Part shown: positions 18,600-37,251 of the stretch, one piece after another
How positions within the stretch are numbered: the stretch's first letter is position 1
Layout of the letters: every line of letters starts with the position of its first letter
Assembly: GCA_963798355.1 (NCBI GenBank)
Contig: CAWCSY010000006.1
Location: forward strand, 528,959-592,958
From: an uncultured Microthrixaceae bacterium
GTDB lineage: Bacteria; Actinomycetota; Acidimicrobiia; Acidimicrobiales; Acidimicrobilacustridaceae
DNA length: 64,000 nucleotides
Direction: 5' to 3'
Translations under genes and position numbers: made by a program
Notes under the pieces: model-generated
The model's input: only the letters and a program-made list of their open reading frames with translations
Database searches by the model: none
Told to the model about the DNA's origin: nothing

Positions 18600-18630
18600 C
18601 TTGACAATGACGTCGATGTTGCACTAATTC
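18600..18630 (+). promoter_or_regulatory. operator/promoter motif copy 1 (hexamer triplet plus -10)
   Basis: CTTGACAATGACGTCGATGTTGCAC TAATTC. A low-GC spot 214 nt upstream of the ABC binding-protein ATG. TTGACA and TAATTC are spaced 18 nt apart, like a sigma-70-type promoter. Confidence 0.6.
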
Positions 18631-18700
18631 TTGTCCACGCAAGGTCGGACGGGGTCGACCAGATCCCGCAAGCCGTTCTTGCAACAGGGGCCACCAGGGG

Positions 18701-18724
18701 GTGACGTCGATGGTGCAGCACACC
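18701..18724 (+). promoter_or_regulatory. partial second copy of the operator core (no -10 box)
   Basis: GTGACGTCGATGGTGCAGCACACC repeats TGACGTCGATG-TGCA of copy 1, about 95 nt downstream of it. Confidence 0.45.
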
Positions 18725-18843
18725 GCGTTGAGCTCTTCCTCGGCGCGCCGTCGACCGGTCGGCGCCTGATCAACCCTCGAAGTCGACCCTCACCCCATCG
18801 GCAGGCGGTCACGACCATCTGCACTCTCCAGGAGGAACGATCC

Positions 18844-20202
18844 ATGCCGACGTCTCGACGCACGTCCTGGCCTCGCGGCCTGATCATCATCGGTGTCGTG
18901 GTGGCCTTCCTCGCCGTCGCGTGCGGCAACGCCAACGACGACAAGGGAGGCTCGGCCTCGCCGACGTCGGCGGCGGGCTCGGGAGACTCCGGCGCCGCGG
19001 TTCCGGGTGTGACCGCCGACGAGATCCGGTTCTCGTCCATCGGCACGAACTCGAACAACCCGCTCGGCACCTGTGTGCTCGACTGCTTCGACAACGGCAT
19101 CAAGGCCTACTTCGACTATCGCAACGACGAAGGCGGGATCTACGGCAAGAAGCTGGTCTTGTCGAAGGAGCTCGACGACGAGCTGTCGAAGAACCAGGAG
19201 CGGGCGCTCGAGGTGGTCACCGCCAACGACACCTTTGCCAACTTCAACGCGACGCAGCTGGCCAGCGGCTGGGCCAACCTGGCCGAGGCGGGCATCCCGA
19301 CCTACACCTGGGCGATCAACCCGGCCCAGGCCACCGGTCATGACGAGATCTTCGGCTACGCGCCGGTCGTCTGCATCGATTGCACCGCGCGCTACGTCGC
19401 CGAGATCTCCAAGACCGCGGGGGCCAAGAAGATCGCGACCCTCGGCTACGGGGTCAGCGACAACTCGAAGCTCTGCGCCGAGGGCGCGGCGGAGTCGGCG
19501 ACCCAGTACGGAGACGACGTCGGTGGAGTCGAGGCTGTCTACACCCGGTCGGATCTGGACTTCGGACTGCCCAACGGCATCGCCCCCGAGGTCACCGCCA
19601 TGAAGGACGCTGGTGTGGATCTCGTCTTCGGATGCCTCGATCTGAACGGGATGAAGACGCTCGCTCAGGAGATGGAACGCCAGGGCATCGGCGACGTGAA
19701 GCTCGTCCATCCGAACACGTACGACCAGACCTTCGTGAAGGACAACGCGGATCTGTTCGAGGGCGACTACGTCCTGGTGGGGTTCCGTCCGTTCGAGGCG
19801 GAATCGGGTTCCAGCAACCTCGACGCCTTCAAGGAGTGGATGGGCAAGAGCGGGAGCCCCATCACCGAGCTGGCGATGGTGGGCTGGATCAATGCCGATC
19901 TGGCCTACCAGGGCATCAAGGCCGCGGGTGAGAACTTCGACCGCCAGTCCGTGATCGGCGCGACGAACGAGATGACCGATTACACCGCGGACGGGCTCAT
20001 CGCGCCTATCGACTGGTCCCGCCAGCACGTGGCACCCACGCAGGAAGACCTGGCGACCCACGGCCCCAAGTACGACTGCTATGCGCTGGTGCAGGTGAAG
20101 GACGGGGCCTTCCAGATGGCCACCGACGCCGCGAAGCCGTGGTCCTGCTGGTCTGGGGCGAACCGTGACTGGTCCGAGCCCACCTCGATGAACTTCCCGT
20201 GA
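18844..20202 (+). CDS. ABC transporter substrate-binding lipoprotein, branched-chain amino acid (HAAT/LivJ-like) family
   Basis: ATG 18844 with GGAGGA RBS. Lipobox in VVAFLAVACGNAN. Type-1 periplasmic binding fold. The upstream in-frame extension from 18631 was rejected. Confidence 0.85.
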   Translation: MPTSRRTSWPRGLIIIGVVVAFLAVACGNANDDKGGSASPTSAAGSGDSGAAVPGVTADEIRFSSIGTNSNNPLGTCVLDCFDNGIKAYFDYRNDEGGIYGKKLVLSKELDDELSKNQERALEVVTANDTFANFNATQLASGWANLAEAGIPTYTWAINPAQATGHDEIFGYAPVVCIDCTARYVAEISKTAGAKKIATLGYGVSDNSKLCAEGAAESATQYGDDVGGVEAVYTRSDLDFGLPNGIAPEVTAMKDAGVDLVFGCLDLNGMKTLAQEMERQGIGDVKLVHPNTYDQTFVKDNADLFEGDYVLVGFRPFEAESGSSNLDAFKEWMGKSGSPITELAMVGWINADLAYQGIKAAGENFDRQSVIGATNEMTDYTADGLIAPIDWSRQHVAPTQEDLATHGPKYDCYALVQVKDGAFQMATDAAKPWSCWSGANRDWSEPTSMNFP

Positions 20203-20218
20203 TCGGGGTCACGCACGG

Positions 20219-22306
20219 ATGATGTTCGCAGCATCGATTGGTACCGATCTGTTGCGGGGGGTGCTCCAGGGAGCGCCCCCCGGGGCGGTGTATGCGTTGA
20301 TCGCGGTGGGGTTCGTGCTGACGTACAAGACGTCGGGCGTGTTCAACATGGCGTTCGGGGCGCAGGCGTACGTGTCGGCGGCGATGTACTTCAAGGCGCG
20401 GACGGTGTGGGGTTGGGGGGCGTTGCCGTCGTTTCTGTTGGCGGTGGTGGTGTTGGCGCCGTTGTTGGGGTTGGGCTTGGAGTGGTTGATCTTTCGCCAT
20501 CTGCGCACTGCGTCAGCGGTATCGAAGCTGGTGGTGACGATCGGGTTGGCGGTGGCGATCCCGGCGTTGTTCGACATCCTGGCGAACTTCACGGCGATCG
20601 CGGGGAAGACGCCGGTGGGGATCGCTCCGGATGGGTCGAAGGTGTTCTACGACCCGTTCGGTGTGTACAAGTTCAGTCGTGACGAGCTCGTGACCATGGG
20701 CATCGCGGTGGTGGCGACGTTGGCTCTCGGCGCCCTGTTCAAGTTCACTGCGTTGGGGTTGCGGATGCGGGCGGTGGTGGAGTCGCCGAGGATGACGGAG
20801 TTGGATGGGATCCCGGCCGATCGGGTCTCCGCGTTTGCGTGGACGTTGTCGTCGTTCTTCGCCGGTCTGGCGGGGGTGTTGATCGCGCCGCGGTTCAACA
20901 CGTTGGCGGCGGACAACTTCTTCAACCTGGTGGTCGTGGCCATCGCCGCCGCGGCGATCGGAAGCCTCGTGAGCCTGCCCAAGGCGTTGGCCGGCGGTCT
21001 CGGTCTCGGCGTGTTCATCGCCCTGTTCAACACGTTCTTGCCACGCTGGTCGAACGACTACACCTGGTTGCGGCCGATCCAGGACAACCTCACGCCGGCG
21101 ATCCCGTTCCTCGTCCTGTTCGGGGTGTTGGTGTTCGTACCCAGCATTCGGCGGACGAGTGAGTCGCGGGATCCGTTGGCGGATGTGGATCCGCCGGCGC
21201 GGACGTTGGGGGCGGTGGTGCGGGATCGGCGTCGCACCCTCATCTCCGGTGCCGTCGGATTCGGGATCCTCGCCATCATCGGGTTGGTGGTGTTCGGTCG
21301 AGCGGATCAGCGGTGGTTGTTCCTGGTGACGCAGGCGGCGGTGTTGGCCATCGTGTTCTTGTCGATCACCGTCATCACCGGCCAGGCCGGGCAGATCTCG
21401 TTGTGTCAAGGGGCGTTCGCGGCGACCGGCGCGTTCACCGTCTACCAGTTGGTGCAGCGCTATGACGCGCCGGTCCTGCCCGCTGCGCTTCTGGGTGGGG
21501 TGATCGCGGCTGTCGTCGGGGCGGTGTTGTCGTTGCCGATCCGCCGGTTGGGTGGGGTGTGGACGGCGATCGCGACGTTGGCGTTCGCCTATTTCTTCGA
21601 TGCGGTGATCGTGAAGCTCCCCTTCGTCGGCGGGGGCGGCAAGTCGTTGCTGCAGGGCACCGTGGTACCCCGCCCGGTGATCGGGGCGTTGAGCTTCAGA
21701 TCTGACAAGGCGTTCCTTGCTCTCGTGCTGGTGGTGTTCACCCTGGTGGCATTGGCGGTGACCCAGATGCGCAACGGCACGTTGGGCCGCGTCCTGGTCG
21801 CGTTGCGGGGCAGTGAGGTGGGCGCCGCGTCGATAGGGATCTCACCGGGCCGGGCCCGGCTGGTCGCGTTCGCGATCTCTGGGTTCATCGCCGGTTTGGG
21901 TGGCGGCCTGTTGGCGATCCAGCAGGGCAACGTGAACTACGCCAACAACTTCTCCCCGTTCGCCGCGCTGTTCTGGGTGGTCATCGTCGTCTCTCTCAGT
22001 TCCCGCACGATCCAGGGGGCGGCGATGGCGGCTGCGTCGTTCGCGCTGTTCGACGCGGTGATCCTGAAGGGCACGTTCATCGGGTGGATCCTGCAGAGCC
22101 CGTCCCGCATTCCGGGGTTCCTACCGATCTCGTCGAAGTGGGTGTTCGTCCTGTTCGGCCTCGGTGCCATCCAATACGCCCGCCATCCCGAAGGCATCCT
22201 CGAGTACTCCAAACGTCGGAGCGCGGCGCGCGCCGCGGATCGTCACGCCGCCAGAACCGCCGCCGCCGCTGACGCGGTGGAGCCTGTTGCGGAGCCGGTG
22301 GCATGA
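20219..22306 (+). CDS. fused LivH-LivM type ABC permease
   Basis: 695 aa, highly hydrophobic. The N-terminal half is LivH-like (AVYALIAVGFVLTYKTSGVFNMAFG). The C-terminal half is LivM-like (LSITVITGQAGQISLCQGAFAATGAF). Confidence 0.85.
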   Translation: MMFAASIGTDLLRGVLQGAPPGAVYALIAVGFVLTYKTSGVFNMAFGAQAYVSAAMYFKARTVWGWGALPSFLLAVVVLAPLLGLGLEWLIFRHLRTASAVSKLVVTIGLAVAIPALFDILANFTAIAGKTPVGIAPDGSKVFYDPFGVYKFSRDELVTMGIAVVATLALGALFKFTALGLRMRAVVESPRMTELDGIPADRVSAFAWTLSSFFAGLAGVLIAPRFNTLAADNFFNLVVVAIAAAAIGSLVSLPKALAGGLGLGVFIALFNTFLPRWSNDYTWLRPIQDNLTPAIPFLVLFGVLVFVPSIRRTSESRDPLADVDPPARTLGAVVRDRRRTLISGAVGFGILAIIGLVVFGRADQRWLFLVTQAAVLAIVFLSITVITGQAGQISLCQGAFAATGAFTVYQLVQRYDAPVLPAALLGGVIAAVVGAVLSLPIRRLGGVWTAIATLAFAYFFDAVIVKLPFVGGGGKSLLQGTVVPRPVIGALSFRSDKAFLALVLVVFTLVALAVTQMRNGTLGRVLVALRGSEVGAASIGISPGRARLVAFAISGFIAGLGGGLLAIQQGNVNYANNFSPFAALFWVVIVVSLSSRTIQGAAMAAASFALFDAVILKGTFIGWILQSPSRIPGFLPISSKWVFVLFGLGAIQYARHPEGILEYSKRRSAARAADRHAARTAAAADAVEPVAEPVA

Positions 22307-23088
22307 GCCCGGTGTTGGAGGTGGAGGGGATGACCAAGCAGTTCGGGCGGATCGTGGCGTTGGAGGAAGCGTCGATCAGTGTCGACGCGGGGGAGCGGGT
22401 CGGGTTGATCGGTCCGAACGGGGCCGGCAAGACCACGTTCTTCAACTGCATGCTCGGTGTGTTGCGCACCGACCGCGGCCGGGTGCACCTCGACGGCGAG
22501 GACATCTCGGGCCTGGCGGTGCACCAACGGGCCCGCAAGGGCATCGGCCGCACCTTCCAACGCATCGAACTGTTCCCCGAATCGACGGTGCGTGATCACC
22601 TCTTCGTCGCCGAACGCGTCCACGGCCGCAAAGGCCGACTGTGGAAGGACCTCATCGGACTCGGTCGCCCCACGGCTGAAGAGCTCGCCCGCTGCGACGA
22701 CGTCCTCCAGCTCCTGCAGTTGAAGGACCTCGCCGATGAACCCATCGAACGGCTCAGTCTCGGCCAGTGCCGCCTCGTCGAAGTCGGCCGGGCACTCATG
22801 ACCGAACCCAAAGTCCTGCTGTTGGACGAACCGTCATCGGGGTTGGATCGGGCCGAGACCACCGCACTCGCCCAGACGTTGCGCGAAGTCCAGGATCGAC
22901 AGGGCTTCGCCATCCTGTTGGTGGAACACGATGTCGAGTTGGTGGCCAGCTTCACCACCCGGTCCTACGTGCTCGACTTCGGTCGCATGATCCTCGAAGG
23001 CCCCACCAACGACGTGTTGGCCTCGGCTGAGGTGCGCGCCGCCTACCTCGGCAACCTGGAACCCACCTCACCGGGACCCACCCCATGA
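22303..23088 (+). CDS. ABC transporter ATP-binding protein (LivG-like)
   Basis: ATGA overlap with the permease stop. Walker A GPNGAGKTT, signature LSLGQCRL, Walker B LLLDEPSSGLD. Confidence 0.9.
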   Translation: MSPVLEVEGMTKQFGRIVALEEASISVDAGERVGLIGPNGAGKTTFFNCMLGVLRTDRGRVHLDGEDISGLAVHQRARKGIGRTFQRIELFPESTVRDHLFVAERVHGRKGRLWKDLIGLGRPTAEELARCDDVLQLLQLKDLADEPIERLSLGQCRLVEVGRALMTEPKVLLLDEPSSGLDRAETTALAQTLREVQDRQGFAILLVEHDVELVASFTTRSYVLDFGRMILEGPTNDVLASAEVRAAYLGNLEPTSPGPTP

Positions 23089-23822
23089 CCGCGACACCCT
23101 CGACGACGGCCGGGGCGCCGGTGTTGGAGCTGGCCTCGGTGGCGGCCGCCTACGGGCCGTTCCGGGCCCTGTTCGACGTGTCGCTCACCGTCGCCGCCGG
23201 CGAAGCCGTCGCGCTCGTCGGGTCCAACGGGGCCGGGAAGACCACCGTCGCCCGCGTCGCCTCCGGACTCCTCGCACCAGGAGCCGGCACCATCCACATC
23301 GACGGACACGACCTCACCGGGGCCCGAACGTACAAATACGCCCGAGCCGGCGTCGCCCACGCCCCGGAAGGCCGCTCGGTGTTCGCCACCATGTCGGTCG
23401 AGGAGAACCTCACCCTGTCGTTCCGACGGGCGTTCGGCCGCAGAGGCGTCCGCGGCGCGCTCGACCGCGCCTACGGCTACTTCCCCGTCCTCGCCGAGCG
23501 ACGCACCCAAACCGCCGGCACCCTCTCCGGCGGCGAACAACGCATGCTCTCCCTCGCCCGGGTCATGGTCGAGGTCCCCAAGATCCTCATCGCCGACGAG
23601 CTCTCGCTGGGCCTCGCGCCCATCATCGTCGACCAGCTCTACCAGAGCCTGCAACGACTCCGCGACGAAGGCACCGCCCTGCTCATCGTCGAACAACAGG
23701 TCGTCCACGCCCTCGACCTCGCCGACCGCGTCATCCTCCTCGACCACGGCACCGTCTCCTGGCAAGGCACCAGCACGGACGCCACCGACGTCATCGCCCA
23801 AGCCTTCGAACCCATCAACTGA
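23085..23822 (+). CDS. ABC transporter ATP-binding protein (LivF-like)
   Basis: ATGA overlap. Walker A GSNGAGKTT, signature LSGGEQRML, Walker B LIADELSLGLAP. Confidence 0.9.
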   Translation: MTATPSTTAGAPVLELASVAAAYGPFRALFDVSLTVAAGEAVALVGSNGAGKTTVARVASGLLAPGAGTIHIDGHDLTGARTYKYARAGVAHAPEGRSVFATMSVEENLTLSFRRAFGRRGVRGALDRAYGYFPVLAERRTQTAGTLSGGEQRMLSLARVMVEVPKILIADELSLGLAPIIVDQLYQSLQRLRDEGTALLIVEQQVVHALDLADRVILLDHGTVSWQGTSTDATDVIAQAFEPIN

Positions 23823-23854
23823 CCCGACCCACGATCCCGTTCTCAGGAGCAGGA

Positions 23855-25105
23855 ATGACCGCATCGGCCGTCGAGTTCGACCCGTTCTCCGACGAGTACT
23901 TCAACGACCCGACCGAGCTCTACCGGCGCCTGCGCGACGAGGCGCCCGTCTTCCACAGCGAGCGCTACGGCTTCTACGCGCTGTCGCGCTTCGCCGACGT
24001 GGTGGCGGCGCATCGCGACTGGCCGGGGCTGTCGAGCAGCCACGGCGTCGATCTCTCGACGCTGTCGACCGACCCGGATCTGGTGCGCAGCTACCGCAGC
24101 ATGATCATGATGGACCCGCCGGAGCACGACCGGTTGCGGGAACTGGTCAGCCGGGTGTTCACCCCGAGAGCCGTCACCGCGCTCGAGCCGATGATCCGAG
24201 AGGTCATCCGTGAGGTCCTCGAGCCGTTGGACGGAGCCGACGACCTCGACGTCGTGGCCGACTTCTCGGCGCTGTTCCCGGTCGAGATCATCTCCCGGAT
24301 GCTGGGTGTGCCAGAGGGAGAGCGGCAGCAGATCCGCCACTGGCTCGACCTGAGCCTCCACCGCGAACCCGGTCAGATGGATCCGACCCCGGAGGGCGTG
24401 CAGGCCGGTCTCGAGATGGGGGTCTACTTCTACGAGCTCGCGGGGGAGAAGCGGAAGCACCCGGTCGACGACATGATCTCGCGGCTCACGCAGGTGTCGG
24501 TCGACCGTGGCGACGGCACCGAGACAGGGCTCGACGACGTCGAGATCGCCGGATTCGCGACGTTGCTCGGCGGGGCCGGGGCGGAGACCGTCACGAAGCT
24601 CGTCGGCAACGCCGTGGTGCTGTTCGCTCGCCATCCCGACCAGTGGACGAAGGTCCTCGACGACCGCGAGGTCATCCCTCGAGCAGTCGAGGAGATCCTC
24701 CGGTACCTCCCGCCCTCGCAGTACCAGGGCCGGTTCTCCGTCGAGGACCGCACGTACGACGGCGGCACGATCCCCGCCGGGTTCCCGGTGTTGCTCATCA
24801 CCGGCGCGGCCACCCGTGATCCCCGAGCCTTCGAGAATCCCGACGACTTCGACATCGAACGGGAGCCGAAGGTGGCCATCGGCCTGGGTCACGGCGTGCA
24901 CAGCTGCCTCGGCGCCGCCCTCGCCCGGATGGAGAGCCGCATCGCCATCGAAGAGCTCGCCGACCGCTGGTCGCGTTGGGAGGTCGACGACGCCGGTCTC
25001 CGGCGGGTGCACATGTCGAACGTGGCGGGCTACTCGAGCGTGCCGGTCACCGTCACCCCCCAGACCCCGACCCCCCGACAACCAGATCCAGGGAGCGAAC
25101 GATGA
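23855..25105 (+). CDS. cytochrome P450
   Basis: 416 aa. ExxR (EEILRY) and heme-thiolate loop GLGHGVHSCLGAALAR. Confidence 0.9.
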   Translation: MTASAVEFDPFSDEYFNDPTELYRRLRDEAPVFHSERYGFYALSRFADVVAAHRDWPGLSSSHGVDLSTLSTDPDLVRSYRSMIMMDPPEHDRLRELVSRVFTPRAVTALEPMIREVIREVLEPLDGADDLDVVADFSALFPVEIISRMLGVPEGERQQIRHWLDLSLHREPGQMDPTPEGVQAGLEMGVYFYELAGEKRKHPVDDMISRLTQVSVDRGDGTETGLDDVEIAGFATLLGGAGAETVTKLVGNAVVLFARHPDQWTKVLDDREVIPRAVEEILRYLPPSQYQGRFSVEDRTYDGGTIPAGFPVLLITGAATRDPRAFENPDDFDIEREPKVAIGLGHGVHSCLGAALARMESRIAIEELADRWSRWEVDDAGLRRVHMSNVAGYSSVPVTVTPQTPTPRQPDPGSER

Positions 25106-26319
25106 CCGACGTCATGCAAGGTGTCCGAGTGCTGGAGGTGGCCGAGCACACCTTCGTGCCGGCCGCGTCGGCGTTGCTGGCCGAGTGGGGCGCCGAGGTG
25201 ATCAAGATCGAGCACGTCGAGCGGGGTGACGCCATGCGCGGCCTCGCGTCGAGCGGCACGGTGTCCCTCGGCGGTGGCGTACACGTGCTCCTCGAGCACT
25301 CGAACCGAGGCAAGAAGTCGCTCGCGCTCGACCTGACGTCCGACGACGGCCTCGCGGTCCTCTACAAGATCGCCGAGACCTGCGACGTCTTCCTCACCAA
25401 CAAGCTGCCGAGCGTGCGGACCAAGCTCAGGATCGACGTCGATGAGATCCGGGCGCACAACCCGAACATCGTCTACGTCCGGGGCACCGGTCAGGGTGAG
25501 CACGGTCCTGACCGGGACCACGGTTCCTACGATGCCCTGGCGTACTGGAACCGAGCCGGGATCGCCTACGGCCTCAAGGATCCTGAGAGCCCGCGGGTGC
25601 CGGCGCCGCCCGCCCCCGCGTTCGGCGATTCCATCGGGGGCATGACCATCGCCGGCGGGATCATGGGCGCCCTGTTCCATCGGGCCCAGACCGGCGAGGC
25701 GACCACCGTCGACGTGTCGCTGCTCGGCGTGGGCATCTGGTCGATGGGCGCGGCGATGGCCCTGTCGCTGCAGATGCAGGTCCCGTGGGGCCCGCCACCC
25801 GGCGGCTTCCCGACCGGCAACCCGCTCGTCAGCAACTACCAGGCCAGCGACGGCGCCTTCGTGGCGCTCGTCTGCCTGCAACCAGGTAGGTACTGGGCCG
25901 AGCTCTGCGAGATCGTCGGTCGCCCCGACCTCGTCGACGACGAACGCTTCGTCGACGCCGACGCCATCATGGCCAACGCGGCCGCCGGGTCCGACGAGCT
26001 GGCCAAGGCCTTCGCGGAGCACTCCGCCGACGAATGGCGAGCGAAGCTCCAGCCGTTCTCGGGGCAGTGGACGATGGTCCAGAACACGCTCGAGGTCGCG
26101 ACTGATCCGCAGACCACGGCCAACGCGTACGTCCAGGACTACACGACCTCGGACGGTGTGGCGTTCCAGCTCGCGTCCCCGCCGATTCGGTTCGGCGACG
26201 AAGCCCCGACTGCGAAGCGCGCGCCCGAGTTCAACGAGCACGGCGACGAGATCCTCCAGAGCCTCGGCTTCGACTGGGATGCCATCGTCGACCTCAAGGT
26301 CCGCGGCGTGGTCGCCTGA
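25102..26319 (+). CDS. family III CoA-transferase (CaiB/BaiF type), intact
   Basis: ATG 25102 overlaps the P450 stop (ATGA). Contains GVRVLEVAEHTFVPAASALLAEWGAEVIKIE and NRGKKSLALDL. 405 aa. Confidence 0.9.
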   Translation: MTDVMQGVRVLEVAEHTFVPAASALLAEWGAEVIKIEHVERGDAMRGLASSGTVSLGGGVHVLLEHSNRGKKSLALDLTSDDGLAVLYKIAETCDVFLTNKLPSVRTKLRIDVDEIRAHNPNIVYVRGTGQGEHGPDRDHGSYDALAYWNRAGIAYGLKDPESPRVPAPPAPAFGDSIGGMTIAGGIMGALFHRAQTGEATTVDVSLLGVGIWSMGAAMALSLQMQVPWGPPPGGFPTGNPLVSNYQASDGAFVALVCLQPGRYWAELCEIVGRPDLVDDERFVDADAIMANAAAGSDELAKAFAEHSADEWRAKLQPFSGQWTMVQNTLEVATDPQTTANAYVQDYTTSDGVAFQLASPPIRFGDEAPTAKRAPEFNEHGDEILQSLGFDWDAIVDLKVRGVVA

Positions 26320-26486
26320 TGGCGTCCGCTCGGCGCGACACGAAGCGCGCCGTGAACAGCCACATCGAGCGGGCGCTCGTGGACGTGCTCGACTTCGCCA
26401 TCTGGGCCGAGTCGATCGCGTCGGCCAGCCCCGAGCGCGCGGCGATCGTCGCGGCGATGCAGGCAGGGGCCGGCGGTCGTGACTGA
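26319..26486 (+). CDS. small hypothetical protein (55 aa)
   Basis: ATG 26319 overlaps the CoA-transferase TGA by one nt (TGATG). Sequence MASARRDTKRAVNSHIERALVDVLDFAIWAESIASASPERAAIVAAMQAGAGGRD, with nearly all codons ending in G or C. It is below the 60 aa cutoff of the ORF track. Confidence 0.35.
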   Translation: MASARRDTKRAVNSHIERALVDVLDFAIWAESIASASPERAAIVAAMQAGAGGRD

Positions 26487-26521
26487 ACCGACACGGGTGG
26501 GCCGATGACCGGGCTGATGCG

Positions 26522-29592: not shown

Positions 29593-29608
29593 AGGTCTGG
29601 CGCCGGGC

Positions 29609-30283
29609 CTACTCGATCGGCATGCCTATGGCGTTGGCCCACAGCACCGTCAGTTGGTCGACGGTCTGATCGAGGTCGAAGTCCTGGGCATGGATGTAGA
29701 TCTGGTCGGCCAGGAACGCCACCATGCCGCCGAGGGCGTTGGCTGCGAACCACGCGTCGACCTTCGGATCGGCCAGTCCCTGCTCCTGGTAGCTGATCGT
29801 GCGCCGTTCGATCAGGTGGGCGAACTCGTTCTGCCGCTGGATGCGCGTCGCAGCCACCTCCTCGTCGAAGGTCGCGACCTGCTGGATCACGCGGATGATC
29901 CCTGCGTTGTCCCGGAAGTGCTCGAGGTACTGGCGGTTGGCCGAACGGATCCGTTCGATCGGGGCGAGCTCGTGGGTGGCCTCGACCCGCAGCAGATCGA
30001 GCTCGACCGAGTCGGCGACCTCGTTGAAGATCTCCTCCTTCGACACGAAGTACGTGTAGAAGGAGCCGTGCGAGATGTTGGCCTCGGCACAGATGTCCAC
30101 GATGCGGGCGTGCAGGAAGCCGTCGCGTTCGAAGACCTTGCGAGCCCCGTCCACCAGGAGCTGGCGGGTGCGCCGTCCCCGGACGGTCCGACCGGTGCCC
30201 CGGCGCTTGGCCGGTGGCTCGTCGTCGGGGTCGTCCCGATAGCTGCGGCTTGCGTTCGGTAGCCGGGTCTGTCGCTGCGTCAC
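29609..30283 (-). CDS. TetR family transcriptional regulator
   Basis: GTG start at 30283. HTH ARIVDICAEANISHGSFYTYFVSKEEIF. It is divergent from the thioesterase gene, with motif copy 3 between them. Confidence 0.9.
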   Translation of the reverse strand: MTQRQTRLPNASRSYRDDPDDEPPAKRRGTGRTVRGRRTRQLLVDGARKVFERDGFLHARIVDICAEANISHGSFYTYFVSKEEIFNEVADSVELDLLRVEATHELAPIERIRSANRQYLEHFRDNAGIIRVIQQVATFDEEVAATRIQRQNEFAHLIERRTISYQEQGLADPKVDAWFAANALGGMVAFLADQIYIHAQDFDLDQTVDQLTVLWANAIGMPIE

Positions 30284-30364
30284 ACGCCCTCCTCGATCGA
30301 GAGTTGTACGGACTCTGGGGCGGCCTGGGGAGCCGGATCTCGGCTCCGCTCACGAGGGGCCGGG

Positions 30365-30400
30365 TCAAGTGTCGACATCGACATCGATGTGAGAGAATCT
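30365..30400 (+). promoter_or_regulatory. operator/promoter motif copy 3
   Basis: TCAAGTGTCGACATCGACATCGATGTGAGA GAATCT. Three tandem TCGAYR hexamers, 57 nt upstream of ATG 30457 and 82 nt from the TetR start. Confidence 0.55.
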
Positions 30401-30456
30401 ACCCCTTCGAGCACGACGGGCCGTCCGTGGGACGGGGTGGGGAGGCACACGCGCAG

Positions 30457-31263
30457 ATGGTCGAGTCCCCGGCAACCGGCGAGCCGACGTCCGTGTTCGA
30501 GTCCGACGGCAACGTGTGCACGCCCACCGAGGCGGCCCGAGGTCCGTGGGACCCCGACGCCCTGCACGGTGCGGCGGTCGCCGCGCTGCTGGCCGGCTCG
30601 CTCGAGGCAGAGGGCCAGGTGGTGGTCCGGGTGCTGGTCGAGCTCCACCGTCCCGTCCCCTTCGAGCCCCTCTCGATCGAGCTCGGCCCGACCGACGGTG
30701 GCCGACGGGTCAAGCGGCAGTTCGCGACGTTGTCCGCACAGGGGCGGACCGTCGCCAGCGCCTCCGCCACCCGGATCCGGTCGACCGAGGTGACCCTGCC
30801 CGCCGGGGCCACCGACCATCCCGTCACGTTCGACCCGGCCATGGCACCGGATCTGACCACGCCGAACCGCCACGCCGCCACCGTGGTCGGTCGGCCGTCG
30901 TTCGACAGCGTGGCGATGGCCACCACGTGGGAGATGGCCACGAGGCCGGGGCCCCGGAAGCTCTGGCTGCGACTGCTGATCCCCATCGTCTCGGGACGGG
31001 AGACGTCCGGTGTGCAGCGAGCGGTGGCGGCCGCGGACTACGGGACGAACGGCACATACGCCCGGCTCCCGTTCGCCGAATGGTCGTACATGAACGCGGA
31101 TCTGACCGTCAGCTTGTCGAGGCCACCGGTCGGTGAGTGGATCGGCATGGAGACCGACGGCATCGTGGCGGCCACCGGCACCGGGCTGTCGATCGCGCAG
31201 GTCCACGACCAGGGCGGCCGCGTCGGTCAGTCCGCCCAGTCGCTGCTCATCGAGTCGCGCTGA
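30457..31263 (+). CDS. thioesterase-like (hot-dog fold) protein
   Basis: ATG 30457 follows GGGGAGG. 268 aa. GPWDPDALHGAAVAALLA resembles acyl-CoA thioesterase-like superfamily members. Called by resemblance only. Confidence 0.65.
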   Translation: MVESPATGEPTSVFESDGNVCTPTEAARGPWDPDALHGAAVAALLAGSLEAEGQVVVRVLVELHRPVPFEPLSIELGPTDGGRRVKRQFATLSAQGRTVASASATRIRSTEVTLPAGATDHPVTFDPAMAPDLTTPNRHAATVVGRPSFDSVAMATTWEMATRPGPRKLWLRLLIPIVSGRETSGVQRAVAAADYGTNGTYARLPFAEWSYMNADLTVSLSRPPVGEWIGMETDGIVAATGTGLSIAQVHDQGGRVGQSAQSLLIESR

Positions 31264-32455
31264 CACGTCGCTCACGGGGGTCCCGAGGGAGGCCGAGGCC
31301 GCGCTCGGCGATGAGGTTCCGCTGGATCTCGTCGGTCCCGCCGCCGATCCGCAGTCCCGGGGCGAAGAGGAACCGTTCGGCCCACACCTCGAAGCCGGCT
31401 GCCCCACCGGCGATCGACGACGCGCCGAGCAGCGCCATCGCCGAGTTGGCGGTCTGTCGGGCGTGCTCGGAGTACAGGAGCTTCACGACCGAACCTCCGG
31501 CCACGACGGGCTGATCGGTCTGGAGCCGGCCCACCAGCAGGTCGAGCAGGGTCTCACGGATGTGGGCGGCCGCCAGCTCCTGGCGGACGAGTGGATCGTC
31601 CGCCCGCCCGAGCTGGCGAGCGTGGTCGATCAGCATGGTGGCCCCGCGGGCGCTCGTGCCGCCCCCGATGGCCGAGCGTTCGCTGGTCAGGACCGTTCGG
31701 GCGACCGTCCACCCCTGACCGACGTTGCCGATGCGGGCGGTGTCGGGCACGCGCACATCGGTGATGAACACCTCGTTGAAGTGATACGACCCGGAGAGCT
31801 CGCGAATCGGGCGGACCTCGATGCCCGGGTCGTGCAGGTCGACCACGAAGCAGGTGAGCCCGGCGTGACCGGGTTCGTCCGGGTCGTTGCGCATCAGTGC
31901 GATGCCGAAATCGGCGCTGCCCGCGACGGAGGTCCACACCTTCTGTCCGGACAGCACCCAGCTTTCGCCATCGGGGGTGGCCCGCCCCTTCACGCCAGCG
32001 AGGTCGGACCCGGCGTCGGGCTCGGAGAACAGCTGGCACCAGACCTCCTCGGCGCGGAGGATCGGGGCGATGTACCGGTTGCGCTGCTCGTCGGTCCCGT
32101 GCTCGAGCAGGGTGGTGGTCACCATCTGCAACCCCACCGCCAGCGCCTTGGTCGACACCCCGTAGGGCGAGGCCTCGGCTGCGAACAGCTCCTCGGCCCA
32201 TCTCCCCCGACCCGCGCCGCCCCACTCCGAGGGGATCGAGAGCCCGGCCCACCCGCCTTCGTGCAGCTCCTGTTGCCAGGAGGCGACGCGGGCGATCACG
32301 GCGCGCTCGTGCTCGACGAAGCCCTCGAGCGTTGCCGCTCCGGCGAGGTGCGCCGTCGAGAAGTCCTCGGGCGATCCCTTCGCGGGGGCACGGTCGGCCA
32401 GCCAGTCCCGGGCGCTCTGGCGGAACGCCTCGACCTCTGCCGCGTCGGTGCTCAT
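31247..32455 (-). CDS. acyl-CoA dehydrogenase
   Basis: 402 aa. ATG 32455 overlaps the upstream stop (ATGA). Contains WCQLFSEPDAGSDLAG and GGGTDEIQRNLIAERGLGLP. Confidence 0.9.
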   Translation of the reverse strand: MSTDAAEVEAFRQSARDWLADRAPAKGSPEDFSTAHLAGAATLEGFVEHERAVIARVASWQQELHEGGWAGLSIPSEWGGAGRGRWAEELFAAEASPYGVSTKALAVGLQMVTTTLLEHGTDEQRNRYIAPILRAEEVWCQLFSEPDAGSDLAGVKGRATPDGESWVLSGQKVWTSVAGSADFGIALMRNDPDEPGHAGLTCFVVDLHDPGIEVRPIRELSGSYHFNEVFITDVRVPDTARIGNVGQGWTVARTVLTSERSAIGGGTSARGATMLIDHARQLGRADDPLVRQELAAAHIRETLLDLLVGRLQTDQPVVAGGSVVKLLYSEHARQTANSAMALLGASSIAGGAAGFEVWAERFLFAPGLRIGGGTDEIQRNLIAERGLGLPRDPRERRVSATR

Positions 32456-32886
32456 CGCGGCAGCCCGAGGACCCGTGCCGCATTGCCTCGGAGGAACTTC
32501 GGCCACACGTCGTCCTCGAAGCCGACGGCGGGCAGCTCGGTCATGATCCGCTCGAGCGAGAGGCCCATGGGGAAGTAGCCGCCGTAGACGAAGCGGTCGG
32601 GGTGCTGCTCGAGCGCGGCGTCCGCGGGGCCGCCGGTGGCGGCCGAGACCATCGCGATGTCGACCCCCCAACGGTCCATCTCCGCCAGGGTGTGGCCGAC
32701 CGGATCGTCGTCCGCCGCGAACCCCTTCTCGGGGACCGCCTTGAACATGTACTCCACCGGCATCTCGAACTCGTCCTGCGTCTGCGTGTCCCGGATCTGC
32801 GCGCGGATCTCGGCGTAGGCGCCACGCAGATCCGCGTGCGGGAACCCGATCATCGTGTCGATGATCCCGACATCGGACGGCATCAC
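32452..32886 (-). pseudogene. amidohydrolase-2 family gene with a probable large in-frame internal deletion (144 aa left)
   Basis: An N-terminal block (IIDTMIGFPHADL...EMDRWGVDIAMVS...HPDRFV) runs straight into a C-terminal block (YFPMGLSLERIMTELPAVGFEDDVWPKFLRGNAARVLGL). The central barrel that carries the metal ligands is missing. Confidence 0.55.
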
Positions 32887-34061
32887 GGAACCGCGACTCC
32901 GAGCAGCTCGAGCGCGTTGTCACGGGCTATCCGCTTCGTCGTCGCCTCGTCCGCCCACGACAGCGACTCGGTCACGAAGTCCACCGGTTCGACGACGCCT
33001 TCCGCGTGCGGCCAGTCGGATCCGAACAGCAGTCGGTCCGCGGGCACATGGTCAATGAGCGCGGCGATGTCGTCCTCCCAGAACGGAGTGACCCACACCC
33101 GCTCGGTGAAGACATCGGTCGGGTGCTGGGTGAAGTACCCGGGGTTCCGGTTGGCTGCGTCGCTGAGACGATGGAGGAGATCGGGGGTCCAGGAGGCTCC
33201 GTTCTCGACGCTGGCGAACTGGATCTGGTCGAAGCGCTCGAACAGCAGCTGGCAGACCGCGGCGGCGTAGAAGTCCGAGACGGCGCGGCCCTTCGAGATC
33301 ACGCCGCGCAGGGGGCTGCGGAACAGCGAGCTCTCCGCACCGGACTCCCACATGTTCACGACGGCGTCGTAGCCCTCGAGGCCGGCGTGGGTGGCGACCA
33401 CGACGCCGCTCTCGTTCACCAGGCCCCAGAACTCGTCGTAGTCGGGTTCGAACGGCGACCGGTGGCCTCCCGGCACGGGGACCGGGGCGTTGCGGATGTT
33501 GATCGCCACCGCACCCAGATCGAGCACCCTCCGCAGCTCGACGGCCGCGGCGTGCGGGTCGAGGAGCTGGATGTACGGAACCGCGAAGAGGCGGCTCTTG
33601 TAGTTGTAGCCCCAGTCATCCTCCAACCACCGGTTGAACGCCTCGAACACGGCCACCGTGGCGCCCTTGTCGTGCTTGATCGCGTCCTCGATCCCGACGC
33701 CGAGCGTGGGGAACAAGAGCGTGCCGCCGAGGCCCTGCTCGTCCATCACCGCCAGGCGGGCATCACGGTCGCGGTACTCCGGACGGATCGGCTCGAGCTC
33801 ACCGAACGCGTCCTTCAGCGCCTTCTGATCGGGGTTGCCCCGGTACCAGGAGTACAGCGCGCCGGGCCTGGAGACCGGGTCGAACGTCGGGTTCACGATG
33901 TAGCTGTTCAGCTGGCCGCCGACGAGGAGCCGCTCGCGTCCCTTCACCGTGACCCACTGCACGCCCCGGCTCCGCAGCTTCGGGTCGAGGTGCCGGGTGA
34001 ACGCATCCGTCGCCTCGTAGTAGTGGTTGTCGAAGTCGAAGAGGTTGAACCCGAGGGTCAT
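32883..34061 (-). CDS. amidohydrolase-2 family metal-dependent hydrolase
   Basis: 392 aa. Contains FDFDNHYYE and LLFGSDWPHAEG. 4-nt overlaps at both ends. Confidence 0.85.
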   Translation of the reverse strand: MTLGFNLFDFDNHYYEATDAFTRHLDPKLRSRGVQWVTVKGRERLLVGGQLNSYIVNPTFDPVSRPGALYSWYRGNPDQKALKDAFGELEPIRPEYRDRDARLAVMDEQGLGGTLLFPTLGVGIEDAIKHDKGATVAVFEAFNRWLEDDWGYNYKSRLFAVPYIQLLDPHAAAVELRRVLDLGAVAINIRNAPVPVPGGHRSPFEPDYDEFWGLVNESGVVVATHAGLEGYDAVVNMWESGAESSLFRSPLRGVISKGRAVSDFYAAAVCQLLFERFDQIQFASVENGASWTPDLLHRLSDAANRNPGYFTQHPTDVFTERVWVTPFWEDDIAALIDHVPADRLLFGSDWPHAEGVVEPVDFVTESLSWADEATTKRIARDNALELLGVAVP

Positions 34062-35362
34062 GGTGCCTGCACCGGGGGAGGGCCCGACGTTCCCCGTCCG
34101 TCGGTGACGAAGCGGCAGTCGAGCGAATGTATGCCGTGCACGAACGCGCCCGCGAGGAGGTCCGGCTCACCCACGTCGAACACGCTCACCGACTGGGCGA
34201 GCTCGCCGAACACGCACCGCAGCTGTGCTCGGGCCAGGTTGGCCCCGAGGCAGAAGTGCGGTCCGCCGCCACCGAACCCGACGTGGTCGTTCGGCTGGCG
34301 GGTTATGTCGAATCGCCACGGGTCGACGAACACGCGCTCGTCCCGGTTGCCCGACCCATAGAACATGACCACGTGGTCCCCGGCCGAGATGGCCTGGTCG
34401 CCGATGGACGTGTCGGTCGTGGCCGTGCGACGGAACGTCATCACCGGAGTGGCCCAGCGCACGATCTCGTCGACTGCGGTGGGCAGCCACCGCTCGGGCT
34501 CGCGGCACAGCAGGTCCCACTGATCGGGGTTCTCCGCGAAGGCCATGACGCCATGGGTGATCGAGCTCCGGGTGGTGTCGTTGCCGGCCACCGCGAGGAG
34601 GACGGTGAAGGCGCCGATCTCCTGATCGGTCAAGCGCTCGCCGTCGACCTCGGCCTGCACCAACGCGGTGAGCAGATCGTCGGAGGGGTGCTCGCGTCGT
34701 TCGGCCGCGAGCTCCGAACCCAGTACCGACAGCGTGATCCCTGCGGTCAGCACCGCGGTGAACGGGTCGTCGTGGTCGGCGGTGAACTTGGGATCCTGCG
34801 CGGTGACCATCAGGTTGGCGGCCTCCCGCAACTCGACCTGCCGGTCAAGTGGGACGCCGAGCATCTCCGAGATCGTCCAGAGCGGCAGTTGCATCGACAG
34901 GTCCGCGACCAGGTCGCAGGTTCCCTTCGCCACCGCGGCGCCCACGATCGTGCGGGCTTGCACGTGGATCTGGGCCTCGATGACCGCGACCTGCTTGGGG
35001 GTGAAGGCCCGGCTGACCAGGCGGCGCAGCTGCGTGTGGCGGGGGGCGTCGGTCATCAGGAACGACCCGAACGGCTCGTTGTACTCCGCAGGGATGTCGC
35101 TGAAGCCGACGCCCCTGCCGCTGCAGTACTGCTCGGGATGGCGGCTGACGTGCACGATGTCCGCGTGCGTGGTCGCGGCCCAGAACCCTGGTCCGGAGGT
35201 CTCGAGGCCGAGCTCGACCGGTCGGTGGAACGTCACCGACGGCCTGCTCCGGAGGACGGCGAAGGCGACGTCTCGCTCGCGCATCGTCGTGTTCCAGAAC
35301 GCTCTCGCGGAGATGTCGACGGGGTCGAAGGGTCGAGTGACTGCTTCGGTTCCACTGGGCAC
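34058..35362 (-). CDS. cytochrome P450, CYP125-like by heme-loop resemblance
   Basis: GTG start at 35362, 434 aa. Heme loop GFGGGGPHFCLGANLARAQL. The conserved N-terminus PFDPVDISARAFW requires this start. The rest of ORF 34058..36514 is out-of-frame overlap with the ligase gene. Confidence 0.85.
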   Translation of the reverse strand: MPSGTEAVTRPFDPVDISARAFWNTTMRERDVAFAVLRSRPSVTFHRPVELGLETSGPGFWAATTHADIVHVSRHPEQYCSGRGVGFSDIPAEYNEPFGSFLMTDAPRHTQLRRLVSRAFTPKQVAVIEAQIHVQARTIVGAAVAKGTCDLVADLSMQLPLWTISEMLGVPLDRQVELREAANLMVTAQDPKFTADHDDPFTAVLTAGITLSVLGSELAAERREHPSDDLLTALVQAEVDGERLTDQEIGAFTVLLAVAGNDTTRSSITHGVMAFAENPDQWDLLCREPERWLPTAVDEIVRWATPVMTFRRTATTDTSIGDQAISAGDHVVMFYGSGNRDERVFVDPWRFDITRQPNDHVGFGGGGPHFCLGANLARAQLRCVFGELAQSVSVFDVGEPDLLAGAFVHGIHSLDCRFVTDGRGTSGPPPVQAP

Positions 35363-35370
35363 GGTCGACC

Positions 35371-35405
35371 AGCCTAGTCTCAACGTCGATGTCAAGTTTG
35401 ATGTC
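35371..35405 (-). promoter_or_regulatory. operator/promoter motif copy 4 (internal promoter for the P450, probably leaderless)
   Basis: On the minus strand it reads GACATCAAACTTGACATCGACGTTGAGAC TAGGCT. The -10 box ends 8 nt before GTG 35362. Confidence 0.6.
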
Positions 35406-35409
35406 TGCG

Positions 35410-37023
35410 CTACTTGAGTAGGCGGCCCAGGGCTGCGGTGTGCTCTGGATCGAGCGCCACCAGCGGTCCCCCCTTCACGGACCGCCAGAACGTGTGGGGC
35501 GCGTTCCATGCCTCCCGGCGCAGCCGCGTCTTGTCGATCTTCATGCTCGCCAGCTTCGGCAGGTCGTCGCTCGTGCGGATGAACGCCGGGATCCACTTCG
35601 GGCCCAGGTCGATCTGCGCAGCCAGGAACCGGTCGAGGTCCTCGGGGTCGAAGGTGGAAGGGTCGGGGAGCTCGAGTGCGGCCATGACCCGATCCCCGAC
35701 CGGGTCGTCCGGCACGGCGTAGACCGCGACGGATCGGAGGCCCGGGTAGCGGGAGAGGATGGCCTCGACCGGTCCGGCGGAGAAGTTCTCCCCGTCGACG
35801 CGAAGCCACTCGTTGCTCCGTCCCGCGAAGTAGAACCAGCCGTCGGCATCGCGGTAGGCCAGGTCGCCGGACCAGTAGAAGCCTTCGCGGAACCGTTCGG
35901 TGGTGGCTTCCGCGTTCTTGTAGTAGCCCTCGAAGCCGGCGGCCGGAGTCGTGTTCACGATCTCGCCGGTTGCCGCCTCCACGTTCAGCAGCCGACCGTC
36001 CGGGCTGCGCTCGATGCGAGGACATTCGAGGGCGGTCGACGGGTCGAGCACGACGGTACCGGCATCGGCGAGGCCGAGCGCACCGGCCGGCATGGTCGAG
36101 TCGCGCCGGATGATGATCATCCCCTCGGTCGACCCGTAGCTGTCGCGGACCTCGCAGGAGAACCGGCCGGCGAAGGTGCGGATGTCCGCCTCGGAGGCCT
36201 CGTTGCCGACGGCCATCCGGAGCGGGTTGTCGCCGTCGTCGGCAGACGGGGGCACCGCGAGGATGTAGTTGAGGACCTTGCCGGTGTAGGTGAGCAGGGT
36301 GGCGTCCATCCGACGGATGTCGCCCATCGTCTTCGAGGCGGAGAAGCGGGATCGGGTCCCGAACGGGACCTGGGCGTTGAACGCCGCGGCCATCCCGGTG
36401 AACAGCGAGCTCGAGTGGAAGAACGGCAGCGGCGAGTAGACCGCGCCGCCATCGGCCAGTCCGGCGATGTTGGCCACGTGCGCTCCCGTCCGAGCGAACC
36501 GTCCCTGCGTGCAACGGACCGCCTTGGGGAAGTTCGTGGAGCCGGAGGTGAAGATGAGGAGGAACAGGTCCTCGTCATCGGCGGGCTCCCGGTCCCGATC
36601 GGCGTCGACGGCATCGAGCGCGGCGGTGTAGCGAGGGTCATCGGTGCGCACGAGGCGGCTGCGGTCGAGGCCGGTCGGCGAGGCATCGAGCAGGTCGCCG
36701 TAGGTGGCGGAGGTGACGACCAGCTGGCAGTCGCTGTGGGTGATCAACCGGGCCAGCTCGTCGCCCCGGTAGGTCGCGTTGATCCCGACCACCGCGGATC
36801 GGGTGAGCGCAGCCGCGCCGAGCCAGAAGACGTACTCGGGGGTGTTGTCGAGGAGCACGCCGATGTGCGGCGGCTGGTCCGGGTCGCGGACCCGGTCCCA
36901 CCAGGCGGCGCGTCGACGGATCTCGCCGGCGAGCTGGCGATAGGTGAAGGACTGGTCCTCGAAGTGCAGAGCCGGCTCGTCGCTGTCGGCGTTGCGGAGG
37001 AAGAGCTCGGACGCGGAGGTCAT
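35410..37023 (-). CDS. AMP-dependent acyl-CoA synthetase/ligase (FadD-like)
   Basis: 537 aa. Contains LIFTSGSTNFPKAV, YGSTEG, GDLAYRDADGWFYFAGR. Confidence 0.9.
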   Translation of the reverse strand: MTSASELFLRNADSDEPALHFEDQSFTYRQLAGEIRRRAAWWDRVRDPDQPPHIGVLLDNTPEYVFWLGAAALTRSAVVGINATYRGDELARLITHSDCQLVVTSATYGDLLDASPTGLDRSRLVRTDDPRYTAALDAVDADRDREPADDEDLFLLIFTSGSTNFPKAVRCTQGRFARTGAHVANIAGLADGGAVYSPLPFFHSSSLFTGMAAAFNAQVPFGTRSRFSASKTMGDIRRMDATLLTYTGKVLNYILAVPPSADDGDNPLRMAVGNEASEADIRTFAGRFSCEVRDSYGSTEGMIIIRRDSTMPAGALGLADAGTVVLDPSTALECPRIERSPDGRLLNVEAATGEIVNTTPAAGFEGYYKNAEATTERFREGFYWSGDLAYRDADGWFYFAGRSNEWLRVDGENFSAGPVEAILSRYPGLRSVAVYAVPDDPVGDRVMAALELPDPSTFDPEDLDRFLAAQIDLGPKWIPAFIRTSDDLPKLASMKIDKTRLRREAWNAPHTFWRSVKGGPLVALDPEHTAALGRLLK

Positions 37024-37173
37024 CGTGCGGTACCGCCCCCAGTGCAGGTCAGGCGAACACGGCCGACGCTACGGCGTCGAGCACGCTCGGATCGGGCATC
37101 TCGAGGAGCAGGGTGTGGGTCGGGGACGTGCGGTGTCGCAACGGCGGAACGGAAGGATCCATCGAGCGCACGG

Positions 37174-37203
37174 TAGATACTCTCAATATCGACGTCAACT
37201 TTG
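37174..37203 (-). promoter_or_regulatory. operator/promoter motif copy 5
   Basis: On the minus strand it reads CAAAGTTGACGTCGATATTGAGAG TATCTA. About 150 nt upstream of ligase ATG 37023. Confidence 0.6.
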
Positions 37204-37220
37204 TGTAGATGGTCGCGATT

Positions 37221-37251
37221 CATCGACTTCGACATCAAGTTTGAGTATGTT
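37221..37251 (+). promoter_or_regulatory. operator/promoter motif copy 6
   Basis: CATCGACTTCGACATCAAGTTTGAG TATGTT. About 70 nt upstream of ATG 37321. Confidence 0.55.

Follow-up and report, generated by a model that had tools for sequence, protein, structure and literature searches.

A 22-bp array of 6-bp-phased units as the probable operator of a TetR-family repressor in a putative actinobacterial lipid-catabolism island

In mycobacteria and rhodococci, the TetR repressor KstR acts through a palindromic operator that precedes many operons of a lipid/steroid island, whose genes encode CYP125-type P450s, heteromeric acyl-coenzyme A (acyl-CoA) dehydrogenases (ACADs), ligases and DUF35/thiolase-type proteins; each transcription unit has one operator, which overlaps the promoter. 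KstR2 is likewise a TetR repressor, acting on CoA-thioester catabolic genes and induced by a CoA thioester. The TetR-type FadRs of Bacillus halodurans, Thermus and Sulfolobus are acyl-CoA-responsive repressors of beta-oxidation genes, and the B. halodurans protein binds as a dimer of dimers to two overlapping or adjacent 16-bp pseudo-inverted repeats (PMC5397183). Here we describe a similar arrangement in 64,000 nucleotides of contig CAWCSY010000006.1 from an uncultured Microthrixaceae bacterium (this whole stretch is referred to as the window, and positions are counted from its first letter). Between 18.6 and 37.3 kb, a 22-bp pseudo-palindrome built of TYRA units marks the starts of the transcription units and nothing else in the 64 kb, within an island that has the gene types and the one-operator-per-unit, promoter-overlapping logic of the KstR system. 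We consider it likely that a TetR-family repressor whose gene lies in the island itself (29609–30283, minus strand) uses this element as its operator and would thereby regulate a lipid-catabolism gene set.

The KstR operator, in contrast to this 22-bp, 6-bp-phased TYRA array, is a 14-bp sequence, TnnAACnnGTTnnA. It has no match in the 64-kb window and neither has the KstR2 operator AnCAAGnnCTTGnT, which bears out the distinction from both that an earlier note on this DNA had drawn. At the protein level, the island TetR gives no match to the KstR model NF033703 (cut-off 280 bits) at E ≤ 0.001, while a second TetR of the window (41071–41772) reaches 24.7 bits; for KstR2 there was no protein-model match of the island TetR either. 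The TetR-type FadRs have a similar fold (template modelling score about 0.65–0.8), but their identity to the island TetR is only 14–19%, their operator type, ATGAATGA...TCATTCAT, differs, and the island protein scores 34.5 bits against FadR model NF053878 with its cut-off of 200, so that only the fold is alike. None of the NCBIfam curated models (KstR, FadR, FasR, MftR, AcrR and others) reaches its cut-off. The host lineages here, Acidimicrobiia, Frankiales and Streptosporangiales, are also unlike those of KstR. By operator and protein model, the system is thus neither KstR, KstR2 nor FadR, but it would work like KstR.

Literature searches combining the core sequences TCGACGTCGA and TTGACGTCAA with TetR gave unrelated papers only, and no description of the motif was found, which is weak evidence with most subscription journals outside the coverage. 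Three described sites were compared and set aside: the Lcin1 motif TCCCGGT[C/G]ACCGGGA of Nocardioides and the mycobacterial TAC-N6-GTA motif differ from the element, and the Mce3R site is non-palindromic and unlike it. The main text of a mycobacterial TetR survey contains no TCGA-type motif. What is new is apparently a TetR operator and regulon in lineages where neither has so far been described; the mechanism itself is ordinary for the family, and the general picture of TetR regulons is unchanged.

The seven instances listed in the earlier note are all present in the sequence, and we find six operator copies (O1 to O6) in five promoter-bearing intergenic regions, with no comparable element in the remaining ~45 kb of the window. 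Operator O1, TTGACAATGACGTCGATGTTGC (18601–18622, plus strand; centre 18611/18612), consists of four hexamer units, two of them imperfect, and is followed by the putative -10 hexamer TAATTC (18625–18630), which lacks the final T and starts at +14 from the operator centre; TTGACA at 18601–18606 lies 18 nt upstream of it. Operator O2, TGAATGTCGACGTCGATGTTGA (27402–27423; centre 27412/27413), is common to two divergent promoters and is flanked by back-to-back TATGGT boxes 25 bp apart, one on the minus strand at 27395–27400 (+13) for the SMP-30/SGL gene and the other on the plus strand at 27426–27431 (+14) for the ACAD pair. Operator O3, TCGACATCGACATCGATGTGAG (30372–30393, plus strand), stands in the divergent spacer between the TetR and thioesterase genes; it is listed as three perfect TCGA units plus one imperfect unit, and as having two imperfect units in the four-unit pattern count, and its sole -10-like hexamer is GAGAAT (30393–30398, +11 from the centre). 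Operator O4, with the plus-strand sequence TCAACGTCGATGTCAAGTTTGA (35380–35401, minus strand), has four perfect units and faces TAGGCT at 35371–35376 (+15). An in-frame GTG of the P450 operon at 35362 is 8 nt 3′ of this hexamer, so the P450 mRNA may have no leader or a very short one. Operator O5, plus-strand sequence TCAATATCGACGTCAACTTTGT (37183–37204, minus strand), precedes TATCTA (37174–37179, +15), which again lacks the final T and is separated from the acyl-CoA ligase gene by a leader of ~145 nt. Operator O6, TCGACTTCGACATCAAGTTTGA (37223–37244, plus strand), has four perfect units and is followed by TATGTT (37246–37251, +13), 5′ of a broken DUF35/thiolase gene.

Apart from O3, the hexamer thus starts at +13 to +15 from the operator centre, with the operator ending 1–3 bp before it. 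The earlier note had described the element as fused to a -10 box with the consensus TAnnnT. The element does adjoin a -10-like hexamer, and TAnnnT is enriched beside it in other genomes as well, but the hexamer is canonical at only four of the seven promoters (27426+, 27400−, 35376− and 37246+), the others carrying TAATTC, TATCTA and GAGAAT. On the present gene map, every transcription unit between 18.6 and 38.2 kb has a copy, as had been claimed, and none is found at the three convergent junctions of the island (26320–26521, 29593–29608 and 31247–31263) or in the promoter region 39311–39575. The note had also placed the low-G+C spots of this part of the window, which is 69% G+C overall, in intergenic DNA only; this does not hold, because G+C falls to 0.60 within the binding-protein gene, at 19.0–19.9 kb.

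To define the element, we have used a metagenome contig with a 92% identical TetR (L001) and 76 loci from species-representative genomes, all chosen through TetR homology alone and scanned for sites over ±10 kb. When the matrix from the window was run on these loci, both strands were often matched 8 bp apart, which indicates a palindrome centred on GAC/GTC. With 169 sites oriented by their better strand, positions that the matrix had not seen mirror the other half: A reaches 72% at −8 (background 15%), preceded by T at −11, C/T at −10 and R at −9, and the mirrored positions show T at +8, Y at +9, G/A at +10 and A at +11. As many as 83 of the 169 score at least 12 bits on both strands. The element is therefore best written TYRAnnTYGAC/GTCRAnnTYRA, a 22-bp pseudo-palindrome made of at least four tandem TYRAYR hexamers, since the TYRA units are 6 bp apart and the two-base spacers are mostly YR. 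The hexamer triplet of the earlier note survives as the promoter-proximal three quarters of this array; its TYRAYR unit was right, and a fourth unit upstream completes the pseudo-palindrome.

Exact TYRA arrays of at least three units in 6-bp phase number 109 in the loci against 0.6 expected, comprising 80 of three units, 26 of four, two of five and one of six. The close-homologue loci hold 76 three-unit runs, of which 62 are adjoined by a fourth unit with a single mismatch, compared with a background of 17%. Since TCGA is its own complement, direct repeats and a palindrome are both valid readings of the array. A four-unit array is also equivalent to two overlapping 16-bp three-unit inverted repeats that are offset by 6 bp, or about 200 degrees round the helix. 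The two-fold symmetry fits a dimeric protein.

Matches of this kind are rare outside the operators. The 18-mer consensus of the earlier note, TYGACRTCGAYRTTGAGA, has three perfect matches in the window (27408+, 35378− and 37181−) and, with up to three mismatches, ten against 0.85 expected; the four-unit pattern with at most one mismatch has four, against 0.03 expected. With a matrix from the seven sites, the ten best window matches fall in the five intergenic regions (18.6, 27.4, 30.38, 35.39 and 37.2 kb), and the sites score 20.5–31 bits (22.6 for O1) compared with 16.4 bits for the best coding match. A matrix learnt from the other genomes only ranks the six window operators at the top, with 21.7 bits for O1, 29.5 for O2, 29.1 each for O4 and O5 and 27.6 for O6; the next unrelated window position has 14.0 bits, the random maximum averages 13.2 bits, and one of 40 random sequences reached 23.5 bits. 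A 26-mer matrix iterated on other genomes slipped its register by 6 bp, blurring the GACGTC centre, and served for ranking only. Counts of 8-mers in intergenic DNA are dominated by G+C-rich words, among which ACATCGAC and ACGTCGAT weakly stand out, each occurring in four of 35 regions, all in the island. The weak coding background of matches arises from Asp-Val-Asp codons. The match at 12379 was rejected as the coding sequence DDVDVVIVGGGIAG (DDVDVVIVGGG), the dinucleotide-binding motif of a monooxygenase-like open reading frame (ORF). An exact three-unit array, TCGAGCTTGATGTCGA, at 60701–60716 lies within a coding region far from the island and is probably due to chance.

The sites travel with close homologues of the TetR gene. 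They are present in 46 of the 48 loci with a homologue of at least 53% identity (53–92%; Acidimicrobiia, Frankia, Parafrankia, Pseudofrankia, Actinomadura, Spirillospora and Nocardia), most of which have two to eight strong matches to the window matrix per 20 kb. Their density in these loci is 1.43 per 10 kb, compared with 0.40 around paralogues of at most 45% identity. The sites spread over the full ±10 kb, but the densest 1-kb bin is directly upstream of the TetR gene, and in 16 of the 48 loci a site occurs no more than 600 bp upstream of that gene. In the other genomes, they precede ligase, amidohydrolase, ACAD-pair, P450, SGL and TetR units. Of 216 oriented half-sites there, 49 have a TAnnnT hexamer that begins between +12 and +15, whereas the intergenic background is 0.2% per position; this roughly 30-fold enrichment makes the juxtaposition of operator and -10 hexamer a family property and not an accident of the window. 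The TetR/thioesterase spacers of the window and L001 share an identical 37-nt block that contains O3 and the following GAGAATCTACCC, while the rest has diverged. The O4 orthologue in L001 is a four-unit site before TAGGCT, and the O5 core TTGACGTCGATATTGA recurs there at 1102–1119.

The island TetR (29609–30283, minus strand; 224 residues) has a PF00440 domain (1.9e-11) followed by TetR_C_24, with the helix-turn-helix at residues 43–89. Its AlphaFold2 model comprises nine helices with a predicted local distance difference test score (pLDDT) of 85, residues 1–26 being disordered at low pLDDT. The top Foldseek matches of this model are all TetR-family proteins; closest in fold are EthR, FasR and the acyl-CoA-binding FadRs from Sulfolobus, Thermus and Bacillus, with ~20% identity, and a sequence search of the PDB returned generic TetR matches only (~1e-12). 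In an alignment of 30 sequences reaching down to 55% identity, the recognition-helix region SHGSFYTYF..K is invariant, and so is an Arg-rich N-terminal arm, KRRGTGRTVRGRR (residues 26–38, KRRGTGRTxRGR), with R27, R28, G29, T30, G31, R32, T33, R35, G36 and R37 as its invariant residues; the arm adjoins or falls within the disordered segment. This is the only regulator gene inside the island, and it stands beside its presumed targets with O3 in the divergent spacer, as is usual for TetR systems. With homologues elsewhere carrying the same sites, the protein remains the good candidate binder that the earlier note took it for. The second protein put forward there, the TetR at 41071–41772, was rejected: it is MftR-like (101 bits, below the cut-off), sites are missing from its surroundings, and the related loci yielded no homologue of it. 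No sites were found near the NarL-type response regulator at 52191–52865 either.

Several observations weigh against this assignment. From the start codon of the TetR gene, O3 is ~90–110 bp upstream, and no TetR promoter can be recognised beside it, so the sequence gives no clear sign of autoregulation. As the TetR gene was the basis for choosing the comparison loci, another factor could travel with the same clusters; some genomes (e.g. at L019 and L044) contain several paralogous TetRs together with very similar sites, so that a one-to-one pairing of protein and site set may not hold. The -10 boxes were set by pattern alone, and three of the seven are non-canonical; the inter-unit spacers are mostly not complementary, which allows the direct-repeat reading. 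Lastly, 29 of the 169 sites fall deep in called ORFs, several of which are clearly over-extended, because the G+C-frame caller used for the comparison loci over-extends ORFs and makes the coding/intergenic split there approximate.

In a rival reading, the sites are truly regulatory but serve a different protein, for instance a global regulator or a TetR paralogue from elsewhere in the genome, and the island TetR is merely one of the regulated genes. Co-occurrence in loci chosen by the TetR gene is no proof of binding, and the spread of sites over the whole ±10 kb, the genomes with multiple paralogues and near-identical sites, and the position of O3 off any obvious TetR promoter all agree with such a factor. 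Against it, the island encodes no other DNA-binding protein, sites are absent from the vicinity of both the MftR-like TetR (41 kb) and the NarL-type regulator (52 kb), and for the former no homologue turned up in the related loci. The fall in site density below 45% TetR identity and the peak immediately upstream of the TetR gene also point back to the island protein, and we regard a different binder as unlikely.

Binding by the island TetR is thus the reading that we pursue, and the scheme we infer extends to TetR as the binder, repression, a stoichiometry of two dimers, the ligand and the substrate. In the absence of inducer, the TetR would bar RNA polymerase from seven or eight promoters, O2 governing both of its divergent ones. 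Judging from the four units, which amount to two 16-bp sites offset by 6 bp, two TetR dimers would probably bind from opposite sides of the helix, the first contacting units 1 and 3 and the second units 2 and 4. As the operator fills the spacer and the -35 region up to the -10 hexamer, bound protein would exclude RNA polymerase. A pathway lipid or its CoA thioester, our best guess for the inducer from the nearest folds and the gene content, would bind the C-terminal domain and release the TetR, so that the whole set, namely the ABC importer with its P450 and CoA-transferase, the SGL lactonase, the heteromeric ACAD pair, the thioesterase, the P450-amidohydrolase-ACAD operon and the acyl-CoA ligase, would be induced together.

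This layout has precedents. Single-dimer TetR proteins use operators of 15–17 bp and two-dimer ones 22–32 bp (PMC5397183), and the 22-bp, two-fold symmetric, four-unit site falls in the latter class by length and symmetry, together with those of QacR, CgmR, CprB and Ms6564 (PMC5397183). With overlapping sites staggered by roughly half a turn of the helix, two dimers would come to lie on opposite faces, as in that class, and the proposed layout is also the dimer-of-dimers layout of FadR; the operators of QacR, CgmR, CprB and Ms6564 are, however, unrelated in sequence, whereas here a TCGA unit recurs every 6 bp in arrays of three to six units. The nearest solved fold, at ~20% identity, is EthR of Mycobacterium tuberculosis, whose target is ethA and which is not known to have a regulon-wide repeated operator. 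The operator of EthR is long, and the protein occupies it as a cooperative multimer. For the Arg-rich arm, a parallel is found in SimR, which likewise has an Arg-rich disordered extension before the helix-turn-helix, unrelated in sequence. The SimR arm binds the minor groove (PMC3241653), and the arm of the island TetR may enter it in the same manner.

The same protein could also act on the same sites as an activator or dual regulator, in the manner of FasR, an activating TetR-family protein that is among the nearest folds; promoters without recognisable -35 elements, such as those here, are often activator-dependent. The geometry is nevertheless that of occlusion, since the site takes up the spacer and the -35 region as far as the -10 hexamer and, at O2, is enclosed by two divergent -10 boxes. 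Repression is moreover the norm among characterised TetR-family proteins, most of which are repressors (PMC3511530). Activation therefore appears improbable to us, more so than binding by another factor.

Still less probable is that the repeat belongs to the promoter itself, serving for instance as a -35 or UP-like element of an alternative sigma factor. It is true that TTGACR resembles a -35 hexamer and that its distance to the -10-like hexamer is nearly fixed, but that distance is 11–13 nt, too near for a -35. The element is furthermore two-fold symmetric and serves both directions at O2, and its unit number varies from three to six. An E. coli-type scan of 18.4–38.3 kb called no sigma-70-type promoter (a -35 hexamer 16–19 nt from the -10); with the weak -35 elements of actinobacterial promoters this is as expected, and the promoter assignments accordingly all depend on the -10 pattern. 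A chance or compositional origin (GAC-GTC-GAT, encoding Asp-Val-Asp, is common in high-G+C genomes) or a dispersed repeat like the repetitive extragenic palindromes is hardly credible and already contradicted, since only weak matches, e.g. at 12379, 25425 and 735, are coding, the strong ones are all intergenic at operon starts and absent from convergent junctions, the four-unit and exact-array counts far exceed expectation, and the site is kept across classes of Actinomycetota while its flanks are not. The data support an element that behaves as a transcription-factor site, being neither chance nor promoter core; being two-fold symmetric, within the length range of about 15–32 bp expected of TetR operators, and overlapping the pattern-defined promoters of the presumed targets, it resembles a TetR-type operator.

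If the TetR does bind these sites, a single 22-bp matrix would delimit a whole catabolic regulon in Frankia, Actinomadura and their relatives as well as in soil Acidimicrobiia, most of which are uncultured. Such a matrix would reveal which genes for P450s, ACADs, amidohydrolases, ligases and transporters act together, provide an entry point to an uncharacterised methyl-branched lipid or sterol-like pathway, and be of use in annotating uncultured Acidimicrobiia and Frankia-type genomes. An operator/repressor pair, probably responsive to a lipid or CoA thioester, would be added to the biosensor set, and the modular 6-bp-phased array would offer a tidy system for staggered TetR dimer binding. More tentatively, and with less confidence than we have in the local assignment, we raise the possibility of an undescribed TetR regulon across Actinomycetota (Acidimicrobiia, Frankiales, Streptosporangiales and some Nocardia) in a KstR-like role, a master switch for the catabolism of methyl-branched lipids or sterol side chains, with a modular operator of three to six units on which dimers would be staggered on alternating faces, occupancy and cooperativity at each promoter depending on how many units are present.

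The gene map for 17.8–42 kb was built from codon-position G+C and Pfam. A DUF427 gene (17844–18572, plus strand) precedes O1, and unit 1 (18631–26319, plus strand) encodes a Peripla_BP_6 binding protein, a fused branched-chain-type permease, two ABC ATPases, a P450 and a family III CoA-transferase, the true start of its first gene being probably downstream of 18631. The SMP-30/SGL gene (26522–27355, minus strand) and the ACAD pair (27482–28663 and about 28660–29592, plus strand) diverge from O2. Beyond the TetR gene follow a two-domain acyl-CoA thioesterase gene (4HBT_3; 30457–31263, plus strand), equal in length to its L001 orthologue, an operon for a CYP268/125/124-like P450, an amidohydrolase, a 144-residue ORF product and an ACAD (31247–35362, minus strand), the acyl-CoA ligase gene (AMP-binding; 35410–37023, minus strand) and the broken DUF35/thiolase gene (about 37321–38200, plus strand). 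The thioesterase and ACAD genes are convergent, with their 3′ ends overlapping by 17 bp (31247–31263), and no terminator-like hairpin was called at this junction. Outside the island, a second SMP-30/SGL paralogue (47672–48619), an ORF at 12195–14020 with the N-terminal dinucleotide-binding motif VIVGGGIAG (flavin monooxygenase-like, no Pfam match) and genes at 7–10 kb for an enoyl-CoA hydratase, a luciferase-like monooxygenase and short-chain dehydrogenases are all without the operator.

In the PDB, the P450 at 34058–35362 matches CYP268A2 at 6e-123 and also CYP125 and CYP124. The latter two are terminal hydroxylases of sterol side chains and methyl-branched lipids. The nearest solved relatives of the first ACAD (27482–28663) are 4x28, the heteromeric steroid side-chain dehydrogenase ChsE4-ChsE5, and Tcur3483, which is of the same type. 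From these matches and the gene content, the island looks like a pathway for the uptake, terminal oxidation, CoA activation and beta-oxidation of a bulky methyl-branched lipid, with oxidation of a methyl-branched lipid or sterol-type side chain as its apparent chemistry.

Comparison with L001 shows how differently the modules have fared. The window P450 and ACAD pair are absent from L001 at these positions. By blastn, the luciferase-like gene found before the ligase in L001 is missing from the window, and the promoter-distal ~100 nt of the ligase leader (37024–37179) are homologous to the 3′ end of that monooxygenase gene; it seems that a gene has been deleted 5′ of the ligase and that part of the leader is its remnant. 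The leader contains a possible 37-codon upstream ORF, and an Rfam search of the whole window, including the 145-nt leader, gave no match. The 144-residue ORF (32452–32886, minus strand) has no Pfam match and is an internally deleted second amidohydrolase: in L001 (6932–7801) and other relatives this protein has ~290 residues, and the window lacks 438 nt (146 codons) in frame. In the DUF35/thiolase gene (37314–38200), a DUF35-like N-terminus, MNQITVADDLFTWPSSSPRLLGSRC, runs from an ATG at ~37321 and stops after ~50 codons, and only the C-terminal thiolase domain is left, at 37589–38200 in a different frame, with O6 and TATGTT intact. The island is thus a mosaic in which every module, even the broken one, retains its own operator-promoter cassette. 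L001 has an extra site at 13306–13323, followed by TATGTA, before an SBP_bac_5 binding-protein gene divergent from a sulfatase gene; with no counterpart of this site in the window, regulon membership differs even among close relatives.

Several Frankia and Actinomadura genomes hold two or three such loci. In Spirillospora sp. CA-255316 (CP192047.1, 4.594–4.636 Mb), L019 and L044 form a ~40-kb supercluster with two paralogous TetR genes 21 kb apart and together 13 matrix matches of at least 18 bits. With multiple paralogous loci per genome, cross-talk between paralogues is likely. A three-unit variant, AGTTGAC-N6-GTCAACT, occurs ~1.3–1.5 kb upstream of paralogous TetR genes of 34–40% identity (L064 8498–8523, L070 8725–8744, L071 4254–4279 and L074 8457–8482). 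This shorter site would fit one dimer, and such variants suggest a regulator family that reads the TYRA unit in differing numbers.

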